A DNA stretch of 58,110 bases from an uncultured bacterium (GCA_938045955.1 CALIBK010000096.1:1-58110), one strand, 5' to 3'. Numbered from the stretch's first letter, positions 1-8,208 are shown. Notes: generated by a model not told the origin, from the sequence alone. Made by a program: numbers and translations.

Positions 1-2066
1 TTTAACTTGTCAGCATCGTGCTTTGATTTTTCCAACTCTTCTGTAACCAATTGGGCGAACCTATGGATTGGAAATTGCGGTTTAACTAAAAGAATTCCAC
101 CCGATAATGTAATATTAGGATTTTGACAGGTATACTCTCTAAAGTCTTTATAAATTTCCAATGACAGCTCAATAATTTTATCCCAGGGGCCAATGATAAA
201 AAGATCATCTCCCCCAGAATAAACGATATAAAAAACACTACCTAAGTTTTCACAAATTTGATTTAACCATGCACCAAAAAAAATTTCTAAGTTACTACTT
301 AACGTTGCAATTCTTGATATAGAGGGATTATTAATCCCTAATGAAAATAATAGACCAAGATAATCTATATCCATTTTTAAAATGCCAAGGTATTTTGCAC
401 CTGTACTTCGATTGGCTATTCCTTCAAATTCAAGCACCTCCCCATCAATTCCTATGGGTACAGAATTTCCTAAAAATTTAAACCCAAATGACACTGGCTT
501 TTCATTTATATTTTCCTTTAAGAATTCAAGACCAAGATCTTGGCTAAATTTTGGATTAATTGAAAAAATACAAGAATTCAATTTCAATTTACCATTTAGA
601 ATTTTTTCCATTTCTTCTTCGTTTTGCAATAAAACTGTAACTCCAAAATCTTCAAAAGGTATTTCAGTTCCATGAAATTCTTCACATTTCCCATAAACGA
701 AAGAAATAAATTCCTTTTTTGGAAGATCGGAGCCAATTTTAAAATGAGTTTCGCAATGCTGGCATATTTGACCTTTAGATACTGGAACAATCAAACAAAC
801 ATTACATAGGTCGCTAACCTGTTCAGTTGAATGAAAGAAATCACCTTTTGTAATCATTTCGTTAAATTTTTTCATTTTAGATTCAGATAATTTATCTTCA
901 GCTTTTTTATAAATTTGATTAAACTCAAAGAAATCTTTGGGGGCTACTTCAACTACAACTAACTGGATACTAAGTTCCCCGTAAAATTCTTCTAATAGCC
1001 ATTCATCAAGAAATTGTTGAAGATTCTTCAATTTCTTTTTTGTAAAATCTGAATTTGGTATTAAAATATCGAATCTACCTCCACCACAAAAAAGTAAATT
1101 TGGTATAGGCAATTGCATCTCCCTTATAATCCAATCAGAAATCACATCTGTAAGAAGTGAGATGTAAAAAGATCTCCCCCTCAGTCTTTTTGAAGTCCCT
1201 TTTGTTTCGGCTTTTGGCTTAGTAATACTGTAAATAAATTTCTGAATGCCAGCTATGTCACCCCTTAAAAGTATGAATAAAGGTTTTTGAGCTGTCTGTG
1301 AAGATTCGAGAATAGACCTCCTTTTTTCTATATCCATTTCTTTATGGTGTTGCTTTAATGTTTCAATTAGATTAAGCATTTCGGTATTTGAAAAGTCATC
1401 TTCGCTTAATTTTTTTAGGCAAGCTGCTATAGCACAAGTTACTTTAGAATGGTCAAATAATGATATGTCTGGAATCGTCCTATTATATTGGTCTTCTTCC
1501 CAAGGGGTTGCTGAAGGTACAAAGGTGCCGAATTCCTTGAGTATGAAAAATAATGTCGTAAAATCATAAGGTTGATATTTTTTTAATAATCCAATCTTTT
1601 TGATAAATCCATTCCAAACTCTTTCATATCCTCTCTCTTCAACAAATGGTCTGTCTTTTGGAAATAAGACCTCTTTACTAATTTTTAAAGAGTCCAATCT
1701 ATAGAATTTTTCCTTCCCACAATCCTTCCTGAAATTTATTCTCGAAGTCACCGCTAAAAGAGCTGCTTCGTTTGATTTAAACTGCCCTCTTTCCTCTTTA
1801 ACTCTTTCCCCAGCCGCAAGTTTATCCGCTATGTGAATGATATATTCATTTCGAGTAGAAGGAATTTCATGATGTTTCTCTATAAGATTTGCAATATCTT
1901 TTGTTAAATCATCACCAAAATAATTTCTTAATGAGCTTATAAAATTTCCGGAGAAATCCGAGTGCTTAGTGTAATATTCCCCACCTTCTCTCTGTGAAAT
2001 CTTCCCAATATCATGAAGCAGTGCGGCTAAAATTACGGTTTGGAACTCTTTATCATCAAATCCCAT
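1..2066 (-). CDS. cas10: Type III CRISPR Cas10/Csm1 (3' end runs off window)
   Basis: Manual translation from ATG 2066: MGFDDKEFQTVILAALLHDIGK (HD domain), PDISLFDHSK, GDIAGIQKFIY, KRLRGRSF, CNVC..CQHC Zn finger, LKMDIDYLG, YSGGDDLFIIGPWD (GGDD at 204-215, same frame). GGAGG RBS upstream. Absent from the ORF track because there is no stop codon in the window. Confidence 0.97.
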   Translation of the reverse strand, partial: MGFDDKEFQTVILAALLHDIGKISQREGGEYYTKHSDFSGNFISSLRNYFGDDLTKDIANLIEKHHEIPSTRNEYIIHIADKLAAGERVKEERGQFKSNEAALLAVTSRINFRKDCGKEKFYRLDSLKISKEVLFPKDRPFVEERGYERVWNGFIKKIGLLKKYQPYDFTTLFFILKEFGTFVPSATPWEEDQYNRTIPDISLFDHSKVTCAIAACLKKLSEDDFSNTEMLNLIETLKQHHKEMDIEKRRSILESSQTAQKPLFILLRGDIAGIQKFIYSITKPKAETKGTSKRLRGRSFYISLLTDVISDWIIREMQLPIPNLLFCGGGRFDILIPNSDFTKKKLKNLQQFLDEWLLEEFYGELSIQLVVVEVAPKDFFEFNQIYKKAEDKLSESKMKKFNEMITKGDFFHSTEQVSDLCNVCLIVPVSKGQICQHCETHFKIGSDLPKKEFISFVYGKCEEFHGTEIPFEDFGVTVLLQNEEEMEKILNGKLKLNSCIFSINPKFSQDLGLEFLKENINEKPVSFGFKFLGNSVPIGIDGEVLEFEGIANRSTGAKYLGILKMDIDYLGLLFSLGINNPSISRIATLSSNLEIFFGAWLNQICENLGSVFYIVYSGGDDLFIIGPWDKIIELSLEIYKDFREYTCQNPNITLSGGILLVKPQFPIHRFAQLVTEELEKSKHDADKL

Positions 2067-2196
2067 TTTTACCCCTCCAAGATTAAAGATTTAAACGATA
2101 AAACCACAATGTAAAATTATTTTCATTAAAGATCATCTTTATTATTACGAGTAAGCAAATTTGGGATTAAAAATTCAATATTAAAAATCAAAAAGG

Positions 2197-3429
2197 TTAA
2201 GGCTCGGGTTCTTCAGAATCTATCAATGTTTTAAATTCCAAACTTTTTATCTCCGGAAGCGAAGCGCCAATAATACCCTGCATATCTCCATACATTCGTG
2301 TAATATTTTTAATCACTCTCTCAATCTGTTTCTCACGCTTTGCCCAGATTCTATTCATCACCGCCTTTTCACTTTCAAGATCGTTCTTCATGGATAAAAA
2401 AGCTGTAACAATTGCCTCAACTTTTTGCTTGAATTCAGGGCCATTTAAGTAACTATATAATGCCTCCATCTTTTCGTGCTTCCCCATCGCTGCCCTTTTC
2501 TCGTTTGCCAGTTGAATAAGATTCATCCTTAACGCTGTTGCCAGGCATGGTGCAAGGCTATATTCTGTTACCCAGACCCCATCAATCAGCTTGAAACTAT
2601 TCACTTCTTTTGGCATAGCTGTTGTCGCAATCACTGCGATTTCAGCCCTGGTTTCCCTCTGATCCTCTTTTAATTTATCAATCCACCCTTCATTCCAGTT
2701 TTTTGTTCTTTTTGCCTCCCAGATAATTGTCCCACAATATTGACCTAATTGATTATGAACCCTCTGAATAATATCAGCCCCTTTCTTCCCTTTCGAAACA
2801 GGCTCAATCTGATCCATTGGGAAATTGTCTTTAAGAAGATCTTCAAGTTCTATCTCTAAAACCTCGCCCTTTAAATGAATTGGACCCTGCTCAGCTTTTC
2901 TCTTCAGTTCTTCAATATCTCTTAAAAGATCATTAATTTTTTTATCTTTTTCGAGGTCTTTTAGTCTATATTCCTCAGCGATTCTACTTTGTGCCTCTTG
3001 CCTGATCTTTTCCCGTTCTTCGTCCAATCGACGGGTTATTTCGAGTTCAAATAATTTCTGCCTCTCCTCGAGATCCCTCCTCTCTTTCCGAAGATGAAGC
3101 TCCGTCTTGCGCATCTCTTCTAATTGTTCATTTTTATGTTTTAACTCTTCTTCAAGATCTTTCATCCTTAGGTTAAAGGAGTCTTCCAATTGCTTTCTCA
3201 TTTCAGCTTCAATCCTTGCCTTCTCCATTGCCAGTTTTTCAACAATTTCTTGTGAGATTGCTTTTTCTTTCTTTAAAAGGAACTCTTCCTTTTTTGCTAA
3301 CTCCTCTTGCCTCTTGGTTAGTTCCTTTTCAAACTCCTTCTGAATCTCCTCACGAATAGAATGGGTGATCGCTTCGGAAAGAGGAATTTCTCTACGGCAG
3401 TATGGACAAACAATGATTTGTTCTGGCAT
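2197..3429 (-). CDS. DUF2130 family protein (CPxC knuckle, long coiled coil, PD-(D/E)xK-like C-terminal domain)
   Basis: N-terminal CPYC and an E/K/R-rich coiled coil, then KGEVLE...KGADIIQRV...GTIIWEAKRTKNW..GWIDKLKEDQR, which I recognise as typical of DUF2130. Confidence 0.85.
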   Translation of the reverse strand: MPEQIIVCPYCRREIPLSEAITHSIREEIQKEFEKELTKRQEELAKKEEFLLKKEKAISQEIVEKLAMEKARIEAEMRKQLEDSFNLRMKDLEEELKHKNEQLEEMRKTELHLRKERRDLEERQKLFELEITRRLDEEREKIRQEAQSRIAEEYRLKDLEKDKKINDLLRDIEELKRKAEQGPIHLKGEVLEIELEDLLKDNFPMDQIEPVSKGKKGADIIQRVHNQLGQYCGTIIWEAKRTKNWNEGWIDKLKEDQRETRAEIAVIATTAMPKEVNSFKLIDGVWVTEYSLAPCLATALRMNLIQLANEKRAAMGKHEKMEALYSYLNGPEFKQKVEAIVTAFLSMKNDLESEKAVMNRIWAKREKQIERVIKNITRMYGDMQGIIGASLPEIKSLEFKTLIDSEEPEP

Positions 3430-3443
3430 CTTCGATAATCCTT

Positions 3444-3568
3444 AATTTAAAAGAATTTAAAATTCAAAATTTAATATTCAAAATTCAAGATTTAAAACAA
3501 ATTCAAGATTCAAAATCAAAAATACTTTACTCTTTCTTGTTGAATTTTGAATCTGGAATGTTGAATTG
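3444..3568. repeat. Degenerate heptamer (ATTCAAR-like) tandem arrays in inverted arrangement
   Basis: aaattcaaaatttaatattcaaaattcaagatttaaaacaaattcaagattcaaaatc at ~3459-3517 faces ttgaattttgaatctggaatgttgaattg at 3540-3568. Related units occur at 2171-2194, 4011-4038 and 5367-5390. Confidence 0.7.
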
Positions 3569-3994
3569 TTTCGTAAATTCATCGAATCTTTCCTTAAAAC
3601 TTTTATATTCCTTTTTAAACTTCTGGCCTTTAAGTCTTGAGCCTTTGAGATAATCAATCAAACCGCTTAACTGACCTGAGATGTCTTTACAAAGATAAAC
3701 TCCCTTATCAAATTCATCTTTAGTTATATAGTTTTGATCAAGGGCAACATAAAATTGTGATCTTGTCTCTCCTGCTGAACCCTTTGATATAAATAAGAAC
3801 TGAATGAATTCAGTATTTGAACCCCGTTCAAATCCTTCGGAAATGTTATACATAATCGAGGTTGAAGAACGTCTGATCTGGTCGATAAGTGTAAAGTCGC
3901 GGCAAAAATTTTCCTTTTTTGTTAAATCGTAAACATATTTAACAAGGTCTCTTGCCTTTTGCCAGACTGGAAGTTCTTCAAAGCTTTTTGGCAT
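3527..3994 (-). CDS. Four helix bundle protein (23S rRNA IVP / TIGR02436-like)
   Basis: SFEELPVWQKA...DQIRRSSTSIMYNISEGFER...F..FL.ISKGSAGE.RSQ..VA.D..Y signature. Start moved to ATG 3994 (AAGGAAGGAG RBS). Confidence 0.93.
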   Translation of the reverse strand: MPKSFEELPVWQKARDLVKYVYDLTKKENFCRDFTLIDQIRRSSTSIMYNISEGFERGSNTEFIQFLFISKGSAGETRSQFYVALDQNYITKDEFDKGVYLCKDISGQLSGLIDYLKGSRLKGQKFKKEYKSFKERFDEFTKQFNIPDSKFNKKE

Positions 3995-4028
3995 GAAATA
4001 CTCCTTCCTTAAATTCAAGATTCATAAT

Positions 4029-5189
4029 TTAAGATTCGATTGAAATCTTTTTCTTTTCGGTTCGAATCCCATAGCGTTTGCTTCCATGTTTACCAACAGG
4101 TGTAATAGTATAATAAGGATAAAGGGTTTCGTCTTCGATAAATTCTTTCAATGTATTATTGATTTTACTTATATTCTGCCTCAGCGTATCCTGATCGATA
4201 CCCCCTTTTTCGCCCCAGTGTTTTATAAACTCCTCCACCCGACCAGAAAAGGGACCATAGATTTTTTTATAGTCTTTCAACATTTCTTCCAGAGCCTTTC
4301 TTTTTGAAATCTCTCCTAAGGTTAGAAAACAATCTGTGCAATCGAAACAATAGATTCGATCAGGGAAAGAACATCCGTTTATCTTCTGCCTCAATAAATA
4401 GGTGTAGATAACCAGTTGAATTGGAACCATGTCTATGGATACCTCGCCCACCCGAACAATCCTTTCTCTTAAATCGACTCGGAGGAGGGGTTGAATTAAA
4501 GCCATATCAATCTCTTTTTGTCCCTCTGCCACAAGTTCTCGAAAGCTCTTTCCATTAAGGGGAACTTTTTCCCTTAGACGAATAAATGGGAGTTCTGCCA
4601 ATGAGATATGAACATCTCGAGTATGGATTTTTTTAATTAACTTTCCATTATGATTTCTTATCTCGATAAATCTATCCCTTTTGGGTTTATAGTAAAATTC
4701 GGGATGGGATTCCAATTCAGGAGGAACAAGGACATGATACAGTTTATCCCAGGGACGTCCAAAAAGCTGGAGTGCCGAACCCAGATAAAAGGACATAGTT
4801 TTACGGCCTCCTGCTAAAGAGCAATGGAGACGAGCCTTTGGATCAGAGGTCTTTTCTTTTATAAAATTTGCAATAAGATCACCTACTCTCTCATTATGAT
4901 CAGTTTTACGAATATCTTCGAGCCATTGCCCATTTTCTCCTTCGATTACATGAATTGACTTATTAGATAAAACGAATTCCGGGAGTCCAAATTCTTTAGA
5001 GAAAGCTGATAATCTTTCCTTTTTGATCAATTCTTCTTCAATCTTTTCCTTTCCTATGGAAGTTGTAATTATATGAATTTCTTCAGGAATAACAGGAGGT
5101 TTGAATTCTTGAGTAAGTGCATAGAGAGTTTCGGTAATAATTTGAGGCGTGGTCCCGATTACAAAAACCAGGATCTCTCTATATTTCAT
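4029..5189 (-). CDS. CRISPR-associated CARF protein, Cas_NE0113 family (putative ring nuclease) with C-terminal wHTH-like domain
   Basis: GTTPQIITETLYAL and HCSLAGGRKTMSFYLGSALQLFGRPWDKLYHVLV are NE0113 motifs. It lies between cas6 and cas10. ATG 5189 follows GGAGGGG. Confidence 0.9.
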   Translation of the reverse strand: MKYREILVFVIGTTPQIITETLYALTQEFKPPVIPEEIHIITTSIGKEKIEEELIKKERLSAFSKEFGLPEFVLSNKSIHVIEGENGQWLEDIRKTDHNERVGDLIANFIKEKTSDPKARLHCSLAGGRKTMSFYLGSALQLFGRPWDKLYHVLVPPELESHPEFYYKPKRDRFIEIRNHNGKLIKKIHTRDVHISLAELPFIRLREKVPLNGKSFRELVAEGQKEIDMALIQPLLRVDLRERIVRVGEVSIDMVPIQLVIYTYLLRQKINGCSFPDRIYCFDCTDCFLTLGEISKRKALEEMLKDYKKIYGPFSGRVEEFIKHWGEKGGIDQDTLRQNISKINNTLKEFIEDETLYPYYTITPVGKHGSKRYGIRTEKKKISIES

Positions 5190-5368
5190 TTTCCCCTCCA
5201 CAATCTATACGATAAATTATCCTCTGCTCCCTAATCGTTTTTTTCTTATTAATAAAAAATAGAAGGGCGAGATACAAAATAGAAAATATTTTAAAAACAT
5301 TTCGATTGATATATTCCTTATCGTTCGGTCATTTACTCCGCATTAACCTTCAATAAAAAATCCAAAAA

Positions 5369-6319
5369 TTAAGATTCCAAATTTAAGATTTTATATTTAC
5401 CAAGACCGAAACTCGTCCCTTTGCCAACATGAAGATATTCTCCAAGAAGGAGATAAGGGATAAAAGGCTTAAAATCACCTTCAAAGATTATTTCTCCAAT
5501 AAGACCTCCCATCTTCATCCTTGAAGATTGACGATTAGAATAACGCTCCCAGTCAAACCATTTGAGATCTGATTTTATGACTTTTACCTTTTTAGACTCT
5601 TCAATCAGACCCTTATAATCAATGTCCAGTTCCTCTTCACAATGAAAATAGGAAAGAAGGGAAATCCGCCTCAATAGATTTCGGAAAAGGATGTGAAATT
5701 CAAGATGAGGAGTTAATCTCTCACCATATTTCAATCGAACAGGAGTTAAAAATGTCAGATGTAGGGTCAATGGGGAAGAGGAGGGAATAAGATCACTTAT
5801 CTGGATCATTCTGAATTCGCTCTGTAGAATTTTATCCTGACCTGTATAAATGGTTTTCCCCTTTTCTTCGGGAAACGGGTGGGATACCCTAACCTCTTTC
5901 AGCAAATATCTTCCTTTCCCTTTCCCGATTCCTCTCCGGCCCAATTCATCAAAGGTGTAGATGAAGTAGGGCAGAAAATCGATACATTTCCCAATTAAAA
6001 TCAATTCAAAACAAAGAGGATCTCCGGGGTGATAATCCTTTTTCTCTTCCAGAGGAGGGGTGAGGACAAAGGGATGAGGGGCATAGGGATATTTCTTCAT
6101 CTTTGAAGAATCTGGAGGAAGAGGAGTCTCAAAAGTATAAGAATAGACACATTGATTCTTCAAAAGACAAGGTTGGCAATTCTTTTCCCTCTTGATGCAA
6201 ACAACTTTTTTAAAGGTATGGCCAAAGGCACCTCTGAGAGTTGACCCTTTATAGGAAGGAAGGTGAATCCGATCGATAGGATCGAGAAGAAAATAAAATT
6301 GAGCGAACCTGAAATGAAT
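5369..6319 (-). CDS. cas6: CRISPR pre-crRNA endoribonuclease Cas6 (RAMP); N-terminus extends 52 codons beyond the track ORF, probable ATT start
   Basis: C-terminal G-loop GEYLHVGKGTSFGLGKY. The in-frame upstream sequence reads IHFRFAQFYF..IHLPSYKGSTLRGAFGH..CIKREKNCQPCLLKNQC. GGAGG at 6333-6329 is 9 nt before ATT 6319. Confidence 0.93.
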   Translation of the reverse strand: MHFRFAQFYFLLDPIDRIHLPSYKGSTLRGAFGHTFKKVVCIKREKNCQPCLLKNQCVYSYTFETPLPPDSSKMKKYPYAPHPFVLTPPLEEKKDYHPGDPLCFELILIGKCIDFLPYFIYTFDELGRRGIGKGKGRYLLKEVRVSHPFPEEKGKTIYTGQDKILQSEFRMIQISDLIPSSSPLTLHLTFLTPVRLKYGERLTPHLEFHILFRNLLRRISLLSYFHCEEELDIDYKGLIEESKKVKVIKSDLKWFDWERYSNRQSSRMKMGGLIGEIIFEGDFKPFIPYLLLGEYLHVGKGTSFGLGKYKILNLES

Positions 6320-6377
6320 GGGGATTTTCCTCCAAAAAAGTTTTGTTTTTGAAACTGAGGTCCGCTAATTTGTTTTC

Positions 6378-6406
6378 ACCTTACCAAAAGATCTTAAAAA
6401 AATCAA
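6378..6406 (-). promoter_or_regulatory. Candidate sigma70 promoter for the cas operon
   Basis: TTGATT-17 nt-TAAGGT with a TGn extension, about 60 nt upstream of cas6. Confidence 0.4.
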
Positions 6407-6424
6407 TCAATTTTTTAATCAAAA

Positions 6425-6586
6425 CCTAAATTGAGCGATTTTTCGTCATTCATTGAATCAAATATACTGGATTCCTGCTTCCGCAGGAATGACAACTACC
6501 ACTCAATAAATGAAAACGTCATTCCCGTGAAAACGGGAATCCAGAAGGGTTATCTTTAAATAATACTAAGAATCGCTCAATTTAGG
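6425..6586. mobile_element. MITE copy 1 (16-bp TIR, 5-bp TSD CAAAA, internal REP-like doublet)
   Basis: CCTAAATTGAGCGATT...AATCGCTCAATTTAGG with CAAAA on both sides. A highly similar copy lies at 26310-26470. Confidence 0.9.
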
Positions 6587-6599
6587 CAAAAATAAGAAT

Positions 6600-7223
6600 C
6601 TATTTTTTCATGAATACCCATAAGCCTCCTTCCCTTATAATTTTGAAATTTACATTTATATTGCTTTCCCTGATTTTCTCGTAAATTTGATCCTCGTTTA
6701 TCTCCACTTTTCCGATTTCGAAATTCAATTTTCGTGACCTTTCTCCTATTCTCTTTATCACTTCGTCAGGGGTATATTTCCCAAACCCTCCTCCTACAAG
6801 GGCTATCCCTCCGGGTTTAAGAATTCTATCGATGGCTTTAAAATCCAACTTAAACAAAGAGGGAAAGAAGAGGGCTCCGCGAAAGATAGCAAGATCTATC
6901 TTTCGGTCATCGATCTCCTTTAAGGAAGAATCTGTTTCAATAATTTTTATCCTTTTTTCCAATCCTCTTTTACGAGACTCCTCGAGAAAAAAGTCTCCCA
7001 TCCCTTTTGGAAAGGTTGCGATGGTAAAGGAATCCCCAATTCCCTGTTCTATTAGAGTGAAGATGACCCCACAAAAGGGTCCAATTTCTAAGACATCCCC
7101 ATCCAATCGGGAATAGATCTCTTTGATCTGTTTTGTCAGGAAGGGATATACAGGATCCCAAAGGAGATCTATTTCTTGAATTAGATTTAAAGGGTTCGTA
7201 TTCTCTGAAATCCCACCCCTCAT
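6600..7223 (-). CDS. Class I SAM-dependent methyltransferase-like protein
   Basis: VLEIGPFCG (degenerate motif I), DLAIFRGALFF, RILKPGGIALVGGGFG. Confidence 0.7.
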   Translation of the reverse strand: MRGGISENTNPLNLIQEIDLLWDPVYPFLTKQIKEIYSRLDGDVLEIGPFCGVIFTLIEQGIGDSFTIATFPKGMGDFFLEESRKRGLEKRIKIIETDSSLKEIDDRKIDLAIFRGALFFPSLFKLDFKAIDRILKPGGIALVGGGFGKYTPDEVIKRIGERSRKLNFEIGKVEINEDQIYEKIRESNINVNFKIIREGGLWVFMKK

Positions 7224-7299: not shown

Positions 7300-8208
7300 T
7301 TATGACCCTATAATACTCTGGATTGCCTGGTGGATATCGGAATATTGAAAAACAAAGCCATTCTCCAAGAGACGTTTGGGAATGACCCGTTGACCTTCAA
7401 GAATGACCGATCCAAATTCTCCCAGGACCCATCTTACCATAAACGCCGGGGCCGGGATAAATGAGGGACGATGAAGGGCCTTTCCAAGAGCCCTGGCAAG
7501 TTCTTTATTTCGCACGGGTTGAGGTGAAGAGACGTTGACGGGACCCGAAATCTCTGAATGTTTTAAAAGGAAAACAAAAGCCTCTGTCAGATCCTTAAGG
7601 TGAATCCAGGAAAACCACTGGTTTCCACTCCCGATCGGGCCTCCGATATATTTTTTAAAAAGAGGAATCATCTGACCGAGGGCTCCTCCTTTTTCTCCCA
7701 GAACAATCCCGAACCGGGTAATGACCACGCGTGCCCCTTTTTCTCGAGCCTTCAGGGCCTCGCCTTCCCATTCGGCCGCAATTCGGGCTAAAAAGTCATC
7801 TCCCGGAGGAGAGTCCTCCGTCAGCTCCTCATCGCCACAAAAACCGTAGTAGCCTACCGCAGAGGTACTGAAGAGGTGGAATGGTTTTTCCAGAGGAAAA
7901 GGAATTCCCTCAACAATATTTTGGGTGGTAAGGATTCGACTTTCCCTGATCGCCTTTTTGTGCTCCTCCGTCCATTTAGTGAAAATCGAGGCTCCAGCTA
8001 AATTGATTAATCCGTCGTGATTTTTGATCTCTCCCTGCCAGGCTCCCTTCCTGGTTGGATCCCCTTCGAGATAGGAAACTCCTTTTGGAGCTTCCCTTCC
8101 CCCTTTGAGCGACCGGGTTAGAATGGTGATTTCATGGCCATCCTGAACAAGGCGGGAGGTCAACTGTCTTCCCACAAATCCTGTTCCCCCGGTTATCAGA
8201 ATTTTCAT
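7300..8208 (-). CDS. NAD-dependent epimerase family protein (TIGR01777/YfcH-like)
   Basis: ITGGTGFVG, INLAGASI..KWT..HKKAIRESR, SAVGYYG, GSGNQWFSWIH. Confidence 0.93.
   Translation of the reverse strand: MKILITGGTGFVGRQLTSRLVQDGHEITILTRSLKGGREAPKGVSYLEGDPTRKGAWQGEIKNHDGLINLAGASIFTKWTEEHKKAIRESRILTTQNIVEGIPFPLEKPFHLFSTSAVGYYGFCGDEELTEDSPPGDDFLARIAAEWEGEALKAREKGARVVITRFGIVLGEKGGALGQMIPLFKKYIGGPIGSGNQWFSWIHLKDLTEAFVFLLKHSEISGPVNVSSPQPVRNKELARALGKALHRPSFIPAPAFMVRWVLGEFGSVILEGQRVIPKRLLENGFVFQYSDIHQAIQSIIGS

Follow-up and report, generated by a model that had tools for sequence, protein, structure and literature searches.

The stretch of DNA considered here (the window; 58,110 nucleotides, GCA_938045955.1 CALIBK010000096.1:1-58110) is contig C96 of G000, a metagenome-assembled genome (MAG) of an uncultured bacterium that comprises 177 contigs and 2.69 Mb, is 91.65% complete, and comes from a Thermodesulfobacteriota-like host. 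Positions 3–6163 of the window are filled by five co-oriented open reading frames (ORFs) on the minus strand, which encode, in order, Cas6, a CARF-domain sensor protein of the NE0113/Csx14 (CARF5) family, a four-helix-bundle protein (4HB), a DUF2130 protein, and Cas10 (Table 1). Each of the five scored above its family threshold, which confirms the gene order given in a preliminary description of this DNA; the AT-richness that had been ascribed to the operon relative to the rest of the window was also borne out, the G+C content being 0.351 at 1–6590 and 0.462 at 7300–58110. Region 1–6163 represents the first part, or head, of a CRISPR interference operon of type III-A (Csm), in which the DUF2130 gene occupies a variable cargo slot between the CARF gene and cas10. 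The intergenic gaps from cas6 to cas10 (167, about 10–34, 97, and 130 nt) exceed those of the relatives described below.

The first base of the contig is window base 1, and cas10 is therefore incomplete. Its product matches TIGR02578 over model positions 3–637 of 753 and further matches PF22335 (profile positions 1–129 of 133), PF18211 (Csm1_B), and HD. The type III-A assignment made earlier agrees with this Csm1-type match, whose score lies well above the cut-off, and the two motifs that had been reported as kept were located at residues 18–19 (HD) and 618–621 (GGDD), together with two CxxC pairs at 421 and 435. Judged from these motifs, in a gene that is cut before its C-terminal domain, Cas10 may be competent for signalling. 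The cas6 gene is 61–74% identical to the cas6 genes that precede the CARF gene in the relatives.

Table 1. Features of the window and of related loci (coordinates without a locus handle are window positions)
Feature	Location	Strand	Description
cas10/csm1, N-terminal 688 residues, cut by contig end	3..2066	-	TIGR02578 Csm1, 562.9 bits (cut-off 170)
DUF2130 gene, 410 aa	2197..3429	-	PF09903, 230 bits; single copy in genome
TTGAAT-type 7–8-nt repeat block	3454..3521	-	Sense; between 4HB and DUF2130, just 5' of the DUF2130 ribosome-binding site
4HB gene, 23S rRNA intervening-sequence/Avd family	3527..4018	-	PF05635, 117.6 bits (cut-off 33.8); TIGR02436, 114.8 bits (cut-off 24)
NE0113/Csx14 (CARF5) sensor gene, 390 aa	4029..5201	-	PF09623 Cas_NE0113, 158 bits; TIGR02584, 216 bits (cut-off 80.65)
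cas6, 264 aa, first gene of operon head	5369..6163	-	PF10040, 79 bits; PADLOC Cas6 PDLC01477, 304.8 bits
MITE-like insertion, 167 nt	6420..6586	.	Upstream of cas6; terminal inverted repeats 6425–6446 and 6565–6586; internal palindromes
Slot: DUF2130 alone	L119, L120, L036 (=L039), L037 (=L041)
Slot: UPF0158 then DUF2130	L131, L136 (partial)
Slot: 4HB	L122, L124, L121, L145		Additional 245-aa ORF in L121; fragment of UPF0158 in L145
Slot: UPF0158 then 4HB	L038
Slot: UPF0158, ATPase_2/DUF234, 245-aa ORF, 4HB	L125		ATPase_2/DUF234 is PADLOC PDC-S27
Slot: other small ORFs	L130, L132, L137
Slot: empty	L128, L135, L138
UPF0158 genes	L038:2736-3233, L125:2557-3030, L131:2644-3102, L136:846-1295
TTGAAT blocks of relatives	L038:3825-3888, 4007-4047; L124:5476-5509, 6027-6068
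Orphan cas10 5' fragments	L038:3914-3970, 4074-4133; L132:2634-2708
ThsB-like TIR genes at -1 of DUF2130	L069:7083-7991, L107:7261-7797, L108:7462-7944, L111:7260-7796	Co-oriented with DUF2130	Chitinophagales, Nitrospirales

The AlphaFold2 model of the DUF2130 protein (predicted local distance difference test score, pLDDT, 81.6) comprises a CPxC zinc-ribbon hairpin at residues 5–16 (state E), a single helix at 17–179, an alpha-beta core at 188–289, and long helices at 290–400. Residues D219, E238, and K240, which form a D…ExK motif, are invariant among 26 sequences; that is, the catalytic residues are intact. The top Foldseek matches of the model are McrC, Hjc, HindIII, and the SPARDA nuclease, all PD-(D/E)xK proteins and all weak (E 3e-3 to 7e-2). 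With the core fold in the predicted structure and the motif in the alignment, DUF2130 is assigned to the PD-(D/E)xK superfamily; Steczkiewicz 2012 (PMC3424549) lists DUF2130 (PF09903, COG4487) as a PD-(D/E)XK family of unknown function. Pfam returned PF09903 alone, PADLOC and NCBIfam gave no match, and the DUF2130 profile retrieved nothing except coiled-coil noise from the sequences of solved structures. A comparison with the genome's own RmuC (PF02646), a single RmuC sequence, gave an hhalign probability of 0.2 and thus no sign of relatedness. DUF2130 also gave no match to the known effector families activated by cyclic oligoadenylate (cOA), such as Can1, Can2/Card1, Csm6, and NucC. As with Can1 and Can2 (Card1), which are activated by cyclic tetra-adenylate (cA4), a CARF sensor and a PD-(D/E)xK nuclease occur in combination at the type III locus of the window. 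However, Can1/Can2 are single-chain fusions of the two, which are encoded by separate genes in the window, and DUF2130 is a family of its own with a zinc ribbon, a helix of roughly 160 residues, and no CARF domain. Of 8000 scored candidates, at least 2514 were homologues at E ≤ 1e-3. DUF2130 occurs on 45 plasmid records and in 7 of 50,697 phage records, all from Helicobacter heilmannii, and a phage origin was rejected on the latter count.

The site between the CARF gene and cas10 was compared across 34 related loci, comprising 30 from a metagenome scan with the CARF protein and L035–L038. DUF2130 lies at this site in 6 of the 34 as well as in the window, and on the short contig of L044 a CARF gene is likewise followed by DUF2130. 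The gaps that flank it in the relatives measure 3–64 nt; in L036 their lengths are 28 and 17 nt, and in L037 they are 3 and 54 nt. The insertion of a non-cas gene noted in the preliminary description thus recurs, DUF2130 being tightly packed at the same site of related type III-A loci. The description had, however, treated the 4HB and DUF2130 genes as one accessory module. They occur together in the window alone and separately in the 34 related loci, and the two are therefore independent cargo. Slot contents are given in Table 1; G010:C50 carries cas6, CARF, UPF0158, 4HB, and cas10 in that order, and L126 and L127 look like the population of L125. UPF0158 (PF03682), which has no PADLOC match, is a third recurrent cargo, found in 7 of the 34 loci including one fragment. 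Slot ORFs of 241–245 aa were also observed (L121:8442-9176, L125:4633-5367, and L132:1816-2538), one of them lacking any Pfam match and two having sub-threshold matches only (Sigma70_r4 and RNA polymerase alpha CTD).

The locus is of an ordinary kind, the head of a type III-A operon in which the cargo slot varies. It shares Cas6 and a Csm1 with HD and GGDD with ordinary type III-A (Csm) loci that carry CARF ancillaries such as Csm6, and relatives with the same operon head also carry csm2-5, csm6 (CARF-6H-HEPN), and cas1-cas2; it differs in its sensor-only CARF5 gene and in the variable slot before cas10. In G006:C14 (L036) and G012:C77 (L037), from two further genomes of the same family, the complete order is cas6, CARF, DUF2130, cas10, csm2-5, csm6, AEP primase, cas1, and cas2.

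The wider distribution of DUF2130 was examined in 80 loci from GTDB species genomes, all of species other than that of the window. A CARF gene adjoins DUF2130 in three of these (L039, L041, and L044) and cas10 in two. For a quick IQ-TREE phylogeny of 83 rows, the L044 fragment was dropped from the 80 loci as too short, and the window, L119, L120, and L131 were added to the remaining 79. All six rows linked to CRISPR fall into a single clade, with a Shimodaira–Hasegawa-like approximate likelihood-ratio test (SH-aLRT) value of 100, in line with a single capture; sister to this clade is L040, in which DUF2130 has a Cas4-like nuclease as its neighbour. In both the DUF2130 and the CARF trees, the window clusters with L036, L119, and L120. 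Identities to the window for cas6, CARF, and DUF2130 are 67, 75, and 75% in L036, about 68, 68, and 69% in L037, and 66, 66, and 68% in L131; because its divergence tracks that of its neighbours, DUF2130 appears to be co-inherited with cas6 and the CARF gene. The partner cas10 genes of the DUF2130 relatives are only 29–32% identical to that of the window, and the head module therefore persists across different cas10 lineages, as in G006:C14 and G012:C77, where the first three genes are 67–75% identical to those of the window and cas10 only about 32%. Loci with DUF2130 occupy three separate positions in a phylogeny of 24 CARF proteins, corresponding to three changes, although the well-supported branches alone still allow a single origin. 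The picture is one of a single capture, co-inheritance with cas6 and CARF, and later losses or swaps, with DUF2130 as an optional component. Ten further DUF2130/CARF homologue pairs with equal longest-contig size suggest additional linked loci. Full-text searches revealed no published link of DUF2130, PF09903, or COG4487 to CRISPR or defence, and DUF2130 is absent from the supplements of PMC6546367 and PMC11229360. It is also absent from the preprint text of a 2018 neighbourhood study (PNAS), the supplements of which could list it. The conserved association of DUF2130 with type III loci is restricted to one small clade and apparently unreported.

Among the immediate neighbours of DUF2130, 140 of 143 ORFs from 78 loci were scanned, L056 and L114 having been lost in gene calling and three very long ORFs dropped. 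There is no universal neighbour, the largest neighbour cluster covering 6 of the 78 loci. A defence- or mobile-type neighbour, as judged from family names, is present in about 31 of the 78 loci; other neighbours are of the housekeeping type. The former include Old (4 loci), ThsB-like TIR proteins (4), HerA (2), PDC-S06 (2), PDC-S46, and GajB, as well as AbiEii, a type I restriction-modification system, SNF2 with a methylase, a Cas4-Cas1 fusion, and integrases. The co-oriented TIR-DUF2130 pairs (Table 1) may constitute a two-gene TIR-nuclease system whose DUF2130 part is not seen by PADLOC.

The CARF protein scores 340 bits against PADLOC CARF5--CARF over residues 8–389, and both this model and TIGR02584 match it at full length as NE0113/Csx14. 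It consists of an N-terminal CARF domain followed by a C-terminal Cys4 and helical domain; C277, C285, C288, and C291 are invariant in an alignment of 24 sequences, and no enzymatic effector domain was found by family scans. In the AlphaFold2 model (pLDDT 84.2), the C-terminal helical domain closes with a beta-hairpin. Foldseek related the model to Csm6, Cad1-CARF, Can2, Cam1, and the Crn1 ring nucleases Sso2081 and Sis0455 (E 2e-5 to 1e-3), with probabilities of 0.97–1.00 for Cad1-CARF, Csm6, and Crn1, and the best relevant match of the CARF profile among the sequences of solved structures was Cad1 (E 0.014). The profile score above the cut-off and the predicted Rossmann-like fold place the protein in the CARF superfamily (CARF5/NE0113), its modelled CARF fold being similar to Cad1-CARF and Crn1. 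The C-terminal domain matched no helix-turn-helix or other named family, and every score in an Atlas look-up of residues 215–390 was below 0.9; the predicted helices and hairpin, together with weak whole-chain Foldseek matches to the response regulators KdpE (4kny) and 6lgq (E 3-4e-3), are compatible with a winged helix-turn-helix as in Csa3-like regulators. It has been predicted that NE0113 CARF proteins act as transcription regulators (Makarova et al. 2014, PMC4012209), and Csx14 has been grouped with the Crn1 ring nucleases (PMC12409355), neither passage reporting a test of the NE0113/Csx14 subfamily. In NCBIfam, the family is named 'ring nuclease Csm6'. The same CARF gene directly heads type III-B operons in L123, L133, and L134, and a CARF gene at 46% identity precedes TIR-NB-ARC-TPR genes in L139 and L143 (in L141 by length only).

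The true start of the 4HB gene is probably the ATG at 3994, since TTGAAT repeats and a ribosome-binding site lie ahead of it at 3994–4030. The window protein shares the PF05635 family with 23S rRNA intervening-sequence proteins and the Avd proteins of diversity-generating retroelements but differs in context, as its gene is flanked by CARF and DUF2130, has no accompanying reverse transcriptase, and does not lie inside an rRNA gene; no reverse transcriptase family was detected among the six proteins scanned in 1–7223. Six PF05635 copies are present in the genome, the other five in unrelated operons. The window copy is 33–41% identical to four of these five, gave no blastp match at E 1e-3 to the copy on C63, and is 79% identical to the slot 4HB of G010:C50. 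The C63 copy (G000:C63:15178-15920) is flanked by simple-repeat-rich reading frames (…ATRNP…), which suggests repeat-flanked 4HB cassettes elsewhere in the genome. Zhang, Doak and Ye 2013 (PMC3936711) record 18 genes of this family in type I, II, and III cas loci, including one between cmr3 and cmr2 in Pleurocapsa, and a figure legend in PMC10910872 also includes the family among CRISPR associations. The presence of 4HB in cas loci is thus already known. The family is promiscuous and multi-copy, being inserted in many operons including cas operons, and the window gene is most likely a passenger or minor helper.

Repeats of the TTGAAT type lie just 5' of several of these genes. The block between 4HB and DUF2130 has a period of 7 and 10.3 copies according to Tandem Repeats Finder (TRF), and a shorter block (3995–4028) lies ahead of 4HB. 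In the relatives, TTGAAT blocks also precede cas10, 4HB, or the CARF gene, again just 5' of the ribosome-binding site. At a threshold of at least three copies, blocks were found in 13 of 35 sources of the operon family versus 1 of 80 control loci (1.02 Mb), and the lone positive control is the same locus as L037; at a threshold of at least four copies, the entire 2.69-Mb genome contains two. The copy number before 4HB differs between strains, as shown by a 14-nt insertion at 4010 in X1, one of two runs (X1 and X2) in which the stretch is present and which belong to one study that may include the source sample. The blocks can be interpreted as cassette boundaries and possibly as operator sites; a translational enhancer and a recombination site are, besides an operator, candidates for their role. 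Pairing of the TTGAAT block with the ATTCAA-rich 3' end of 4HB in an RNA hairpin was not supported (z-scores -0.65 and +0.62). Orphan ORFs that encode the first 20–24 residues of Cas10 (MGFDEKEY…LLH…) were also observed, each after a TTGAAT block and 5' of the real cas10 (Table 1); they resemble scars left when cassettes were exchanged, or may instead be leader peptides.

The remainder of the type III-A locus was sought in the MAG. With the relatives' cas10 C-terminus, csm2, csm3, csm4, csm6, AEP, cas1, cas2, and UPF0158 as queries, tblastn revealed no continuation of the locus. A search of the MAG, at its completeness of 91.65%, detected no csm4, and the csm3-family matches sit on other type III contigs (C165, C156, and C82). 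C165 was considered as a continuation and was not shown to be one: its RAMPs are Csx7-like, and no Cas10 match was obtained for the 126 aa at its open end. The contigs C82, C156, and C165 represent at least three further type III-like gene sets in the same MAG, which include, besides the Csx7-like RAMPs, Cas10-like ORFs with lengths of 879 aa and at least 539 aa. No CRISPR array is present in the window, and the sole array fragment in the MAG has three repeats (C82:51-209). CRISPR arrays are often lost from MAGs, so a missing array is no proof of absence. The nearest cas10, at 68% identity, is that of G010:C89 (L035), where csm6, an AEP-TOTE/TPR primase, cas1, cas2, 4HB, cas2, cas10, csm2, and csm3 follow one another. 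The gene with TPR and AEP-TOTE primase-like regions that lies between csm6 and cas1-cas2-cas2 (L036:2955-4667, L037:17665-19356, and L035:6352-8100) resembles the CRISPR-associated primase-polymerases.

Upstream of cas6, the insertion at the island edge resembles a miniature inverted-repeat transposable element (MITE), with terminal inverted repeats of 22 nt each. It is skipped by the main X1 contig, and the depth there is about 300-fold over that of its flanks; it is a very abundant repeat in the X1 metagenome, lies outside the system, and accounts for an array-like signal in the read lay-out at 6420–6586 that had been considered as a candidate array. A 207-aa ORF (6600–7223; G+C content 0.389) is located at the right border of the low-GC stretch and has no Pfam or NCBIfam match and a weak PADLOC match only, to mad2 (E 0.0012).

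Based on these observations, DUF2130 is proposed to be a DNA nuclease that serves the type III response as an optional accessory, with about an even chance of this being correct. The operon head consists of cas6, a CARF5/NE0113 sensor gene in whose product no enzymatic domain was found, a variable cargo slot, and cas10. A lineage of DUF2130, a family otherwise found mostly in defence islands, would have entered the site between the CARF gene and cas10 in a single capture and would since have been inherited along with cas6 and the CARF gene. DUF2130 would be co-transcribed with cas10 and could provide an extra, optional DNA nuclease arm. Upon target RNA binding, Cas10 with its GGDD motif would produce cOA, which the CARF protein would sense. 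The CARF protein could then either tune the transcription of downstream genes through its C-terminal domain or degrade the signal. A predicted CARF-DUF2130 complex, which scored 0.00 against a mark of 0.32 in a prediction without controls, counts neither for nor against this scheme.

The conserved placement of DUF2130 ahead of cas10, its single clade, its co-inheritance with cas6 and the CARF gene, the persistence of the head module across cas10 lineages, its invariant D…ExK residues, and its defence-type neighbours elsewhere argue for this accessory role. Likewise in its favour, no terminator-like site was detected in the three minus-strand gaps, in a scan that performed no better than shuffles, and NE0113 CARF proteins are predicted regulators. 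Several observations weigh against it. For 77 of the 80 DUF2130 loci, neither a Cas10 nor a CARF neighbour was detectable. In the CARF phylogeny, the DUF2130 loci sit among equally related loci with 4HB, other cargo, or an empty slot, and this scatter implies that DUF2130 is dispensable and was lost or swapped. The locus with the nearest cas10, G010:C89, contains neither the CARF gene nor DUF2130. No CARF, SAVED, or other recognised sensor domain was found in DUF2130 with Pfam, NCBIfam, or PADLOC. The gaps of 97 and 130 nt in the window leave room for separate promoters; the promoter scan found 21 sites versus 21.9 expected from shuffles. Finally, the X1 assembly graph breaks at 2022–2051, in the first codons of cas10. 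Alternatively, and with clearly lower probability, both inserts may be passengers in a recombination-prone landing site, that is, self-contained defence or selfish genes independent of type III immunity. Slot content varies among DUF2130, 4HB, UPF0158, a PDC-S27-type ATPase, unnamed 241–245-aa ORFs, and nothing at all, while the CARF genes are 66–79% identical; the orphan cas10 5' fragments before the real cas10 (two in L038, one in L132) resemble recombination scars; the DUF2130 label changes three times on the CARF tree; DUF2130 stands by itself in many defence islands and on plasmids; and 4HB is scattered over unrelated operons. Against a passenger origin, the CRISPR-linked DUF2130 genes all belong to one clade, whose divergence, down to about 66–69% identity, parallels that of cas6 and CARF, which points to long retention rather than repeated random landing, the gaps in the relatives are very short and the strand is shared, and the same few cargo families return instead of a random sample of defence genes.

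A third alternative for the role of DUF2130, which is rather improbable, is that of an effector gated directly by a nucleotide messenger, namely cOA here and the TIR product in the TIR pairs, without CARF or SAVED; NucC is a logical parallel for such gating in the absence of a sensor domain. DUF2130 directly follows a signal-related gene in two unrelated settings, CARF/Cas10 and the ThsB-like TIR gene at -1, the TIR pairs (L069, L107, L108, and L111, of which L107 and L111 are near-identical) come from two DUF2130 clades, and the large non-catalytic parts of the protein (zinc ribbon, helix 17–179, and helices 290–400) could house regulation. However, family scans and structure searches recognised no ligand-binding domain in DUF2130, the TIR pairs make up only 4 of 78 loci, with L107, L108, and L111 in one Nitrospirales clade, and most DUF2130 genes have no signal-making neighbour at -1 or +1. 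An extended form is just as speculative: DUF2130 would be a signal-gated, sensor-less DNA nuclease recruited by type III-A CRISPR and by Thoeris-like TIR genes in Nitrospirota and Bacteroidota, with the TTGAAT blocks as CARF operators that switch the slot on. The accessory-nuclease, passenger, and direct-signal readings are alternatives to one another; doubt over the join of DUF2130 to this particular cas10 is a separate matter and is compatible with any of them. In X1, one contig of depth 8.5 covers 1–2051 and another of depth 22.6 covers 2022–6419 and 6587–7000, so that the two overlap by 30 nt only, within the conserved first codons of cas10; one X1 record appears to extend beyond window base 1. 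The drop in depth means that perhaps only part of the population joins DUF2130 to this cas10, and it suggests that strain-level alternatives follow the cargo slot after the first 15 codons of cas10. That the join is an artefact of assembly or binning, or else represents a minority variant, with the head mostly continuing otherwise, is unlikely, though somewhat less so than direct gating. Every other DUF2130-bearing locus has a cas10 just 29–32% identical to that of the window, as such an artefact would have it. On the other side, an X2 contig spans 1743–2170 without mismatch, ends 27 nt before the DUF2130 stop codon, and ties this cas10 to its upstream spacer; because X1 and X2 share one study and maybe the source sample, this contig is no independent support. 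As a general claim, the position of DUF2130 ahead of a type III-A cas10 is independent of the join in the window.

Type III CRISPR systems are a main source of newly found signal-controlled effectors, and published censuses mostly seek proteins with sensor domains. The locus family described here places a widespread and uncharacterised PD-(D/E)xK family, with its at least 2514 homologues, inside a type III-A operon as well as in defence islands, and the operon is headed by a sensor-only CARF5 gene. Its cargo slot, with conserved sense-strand repeats, could reveal how accessory genes are exchanged among type III loci. Even if DUF2130 were a passenger, a recombination hot spot ahead of cas10 would still be documented.

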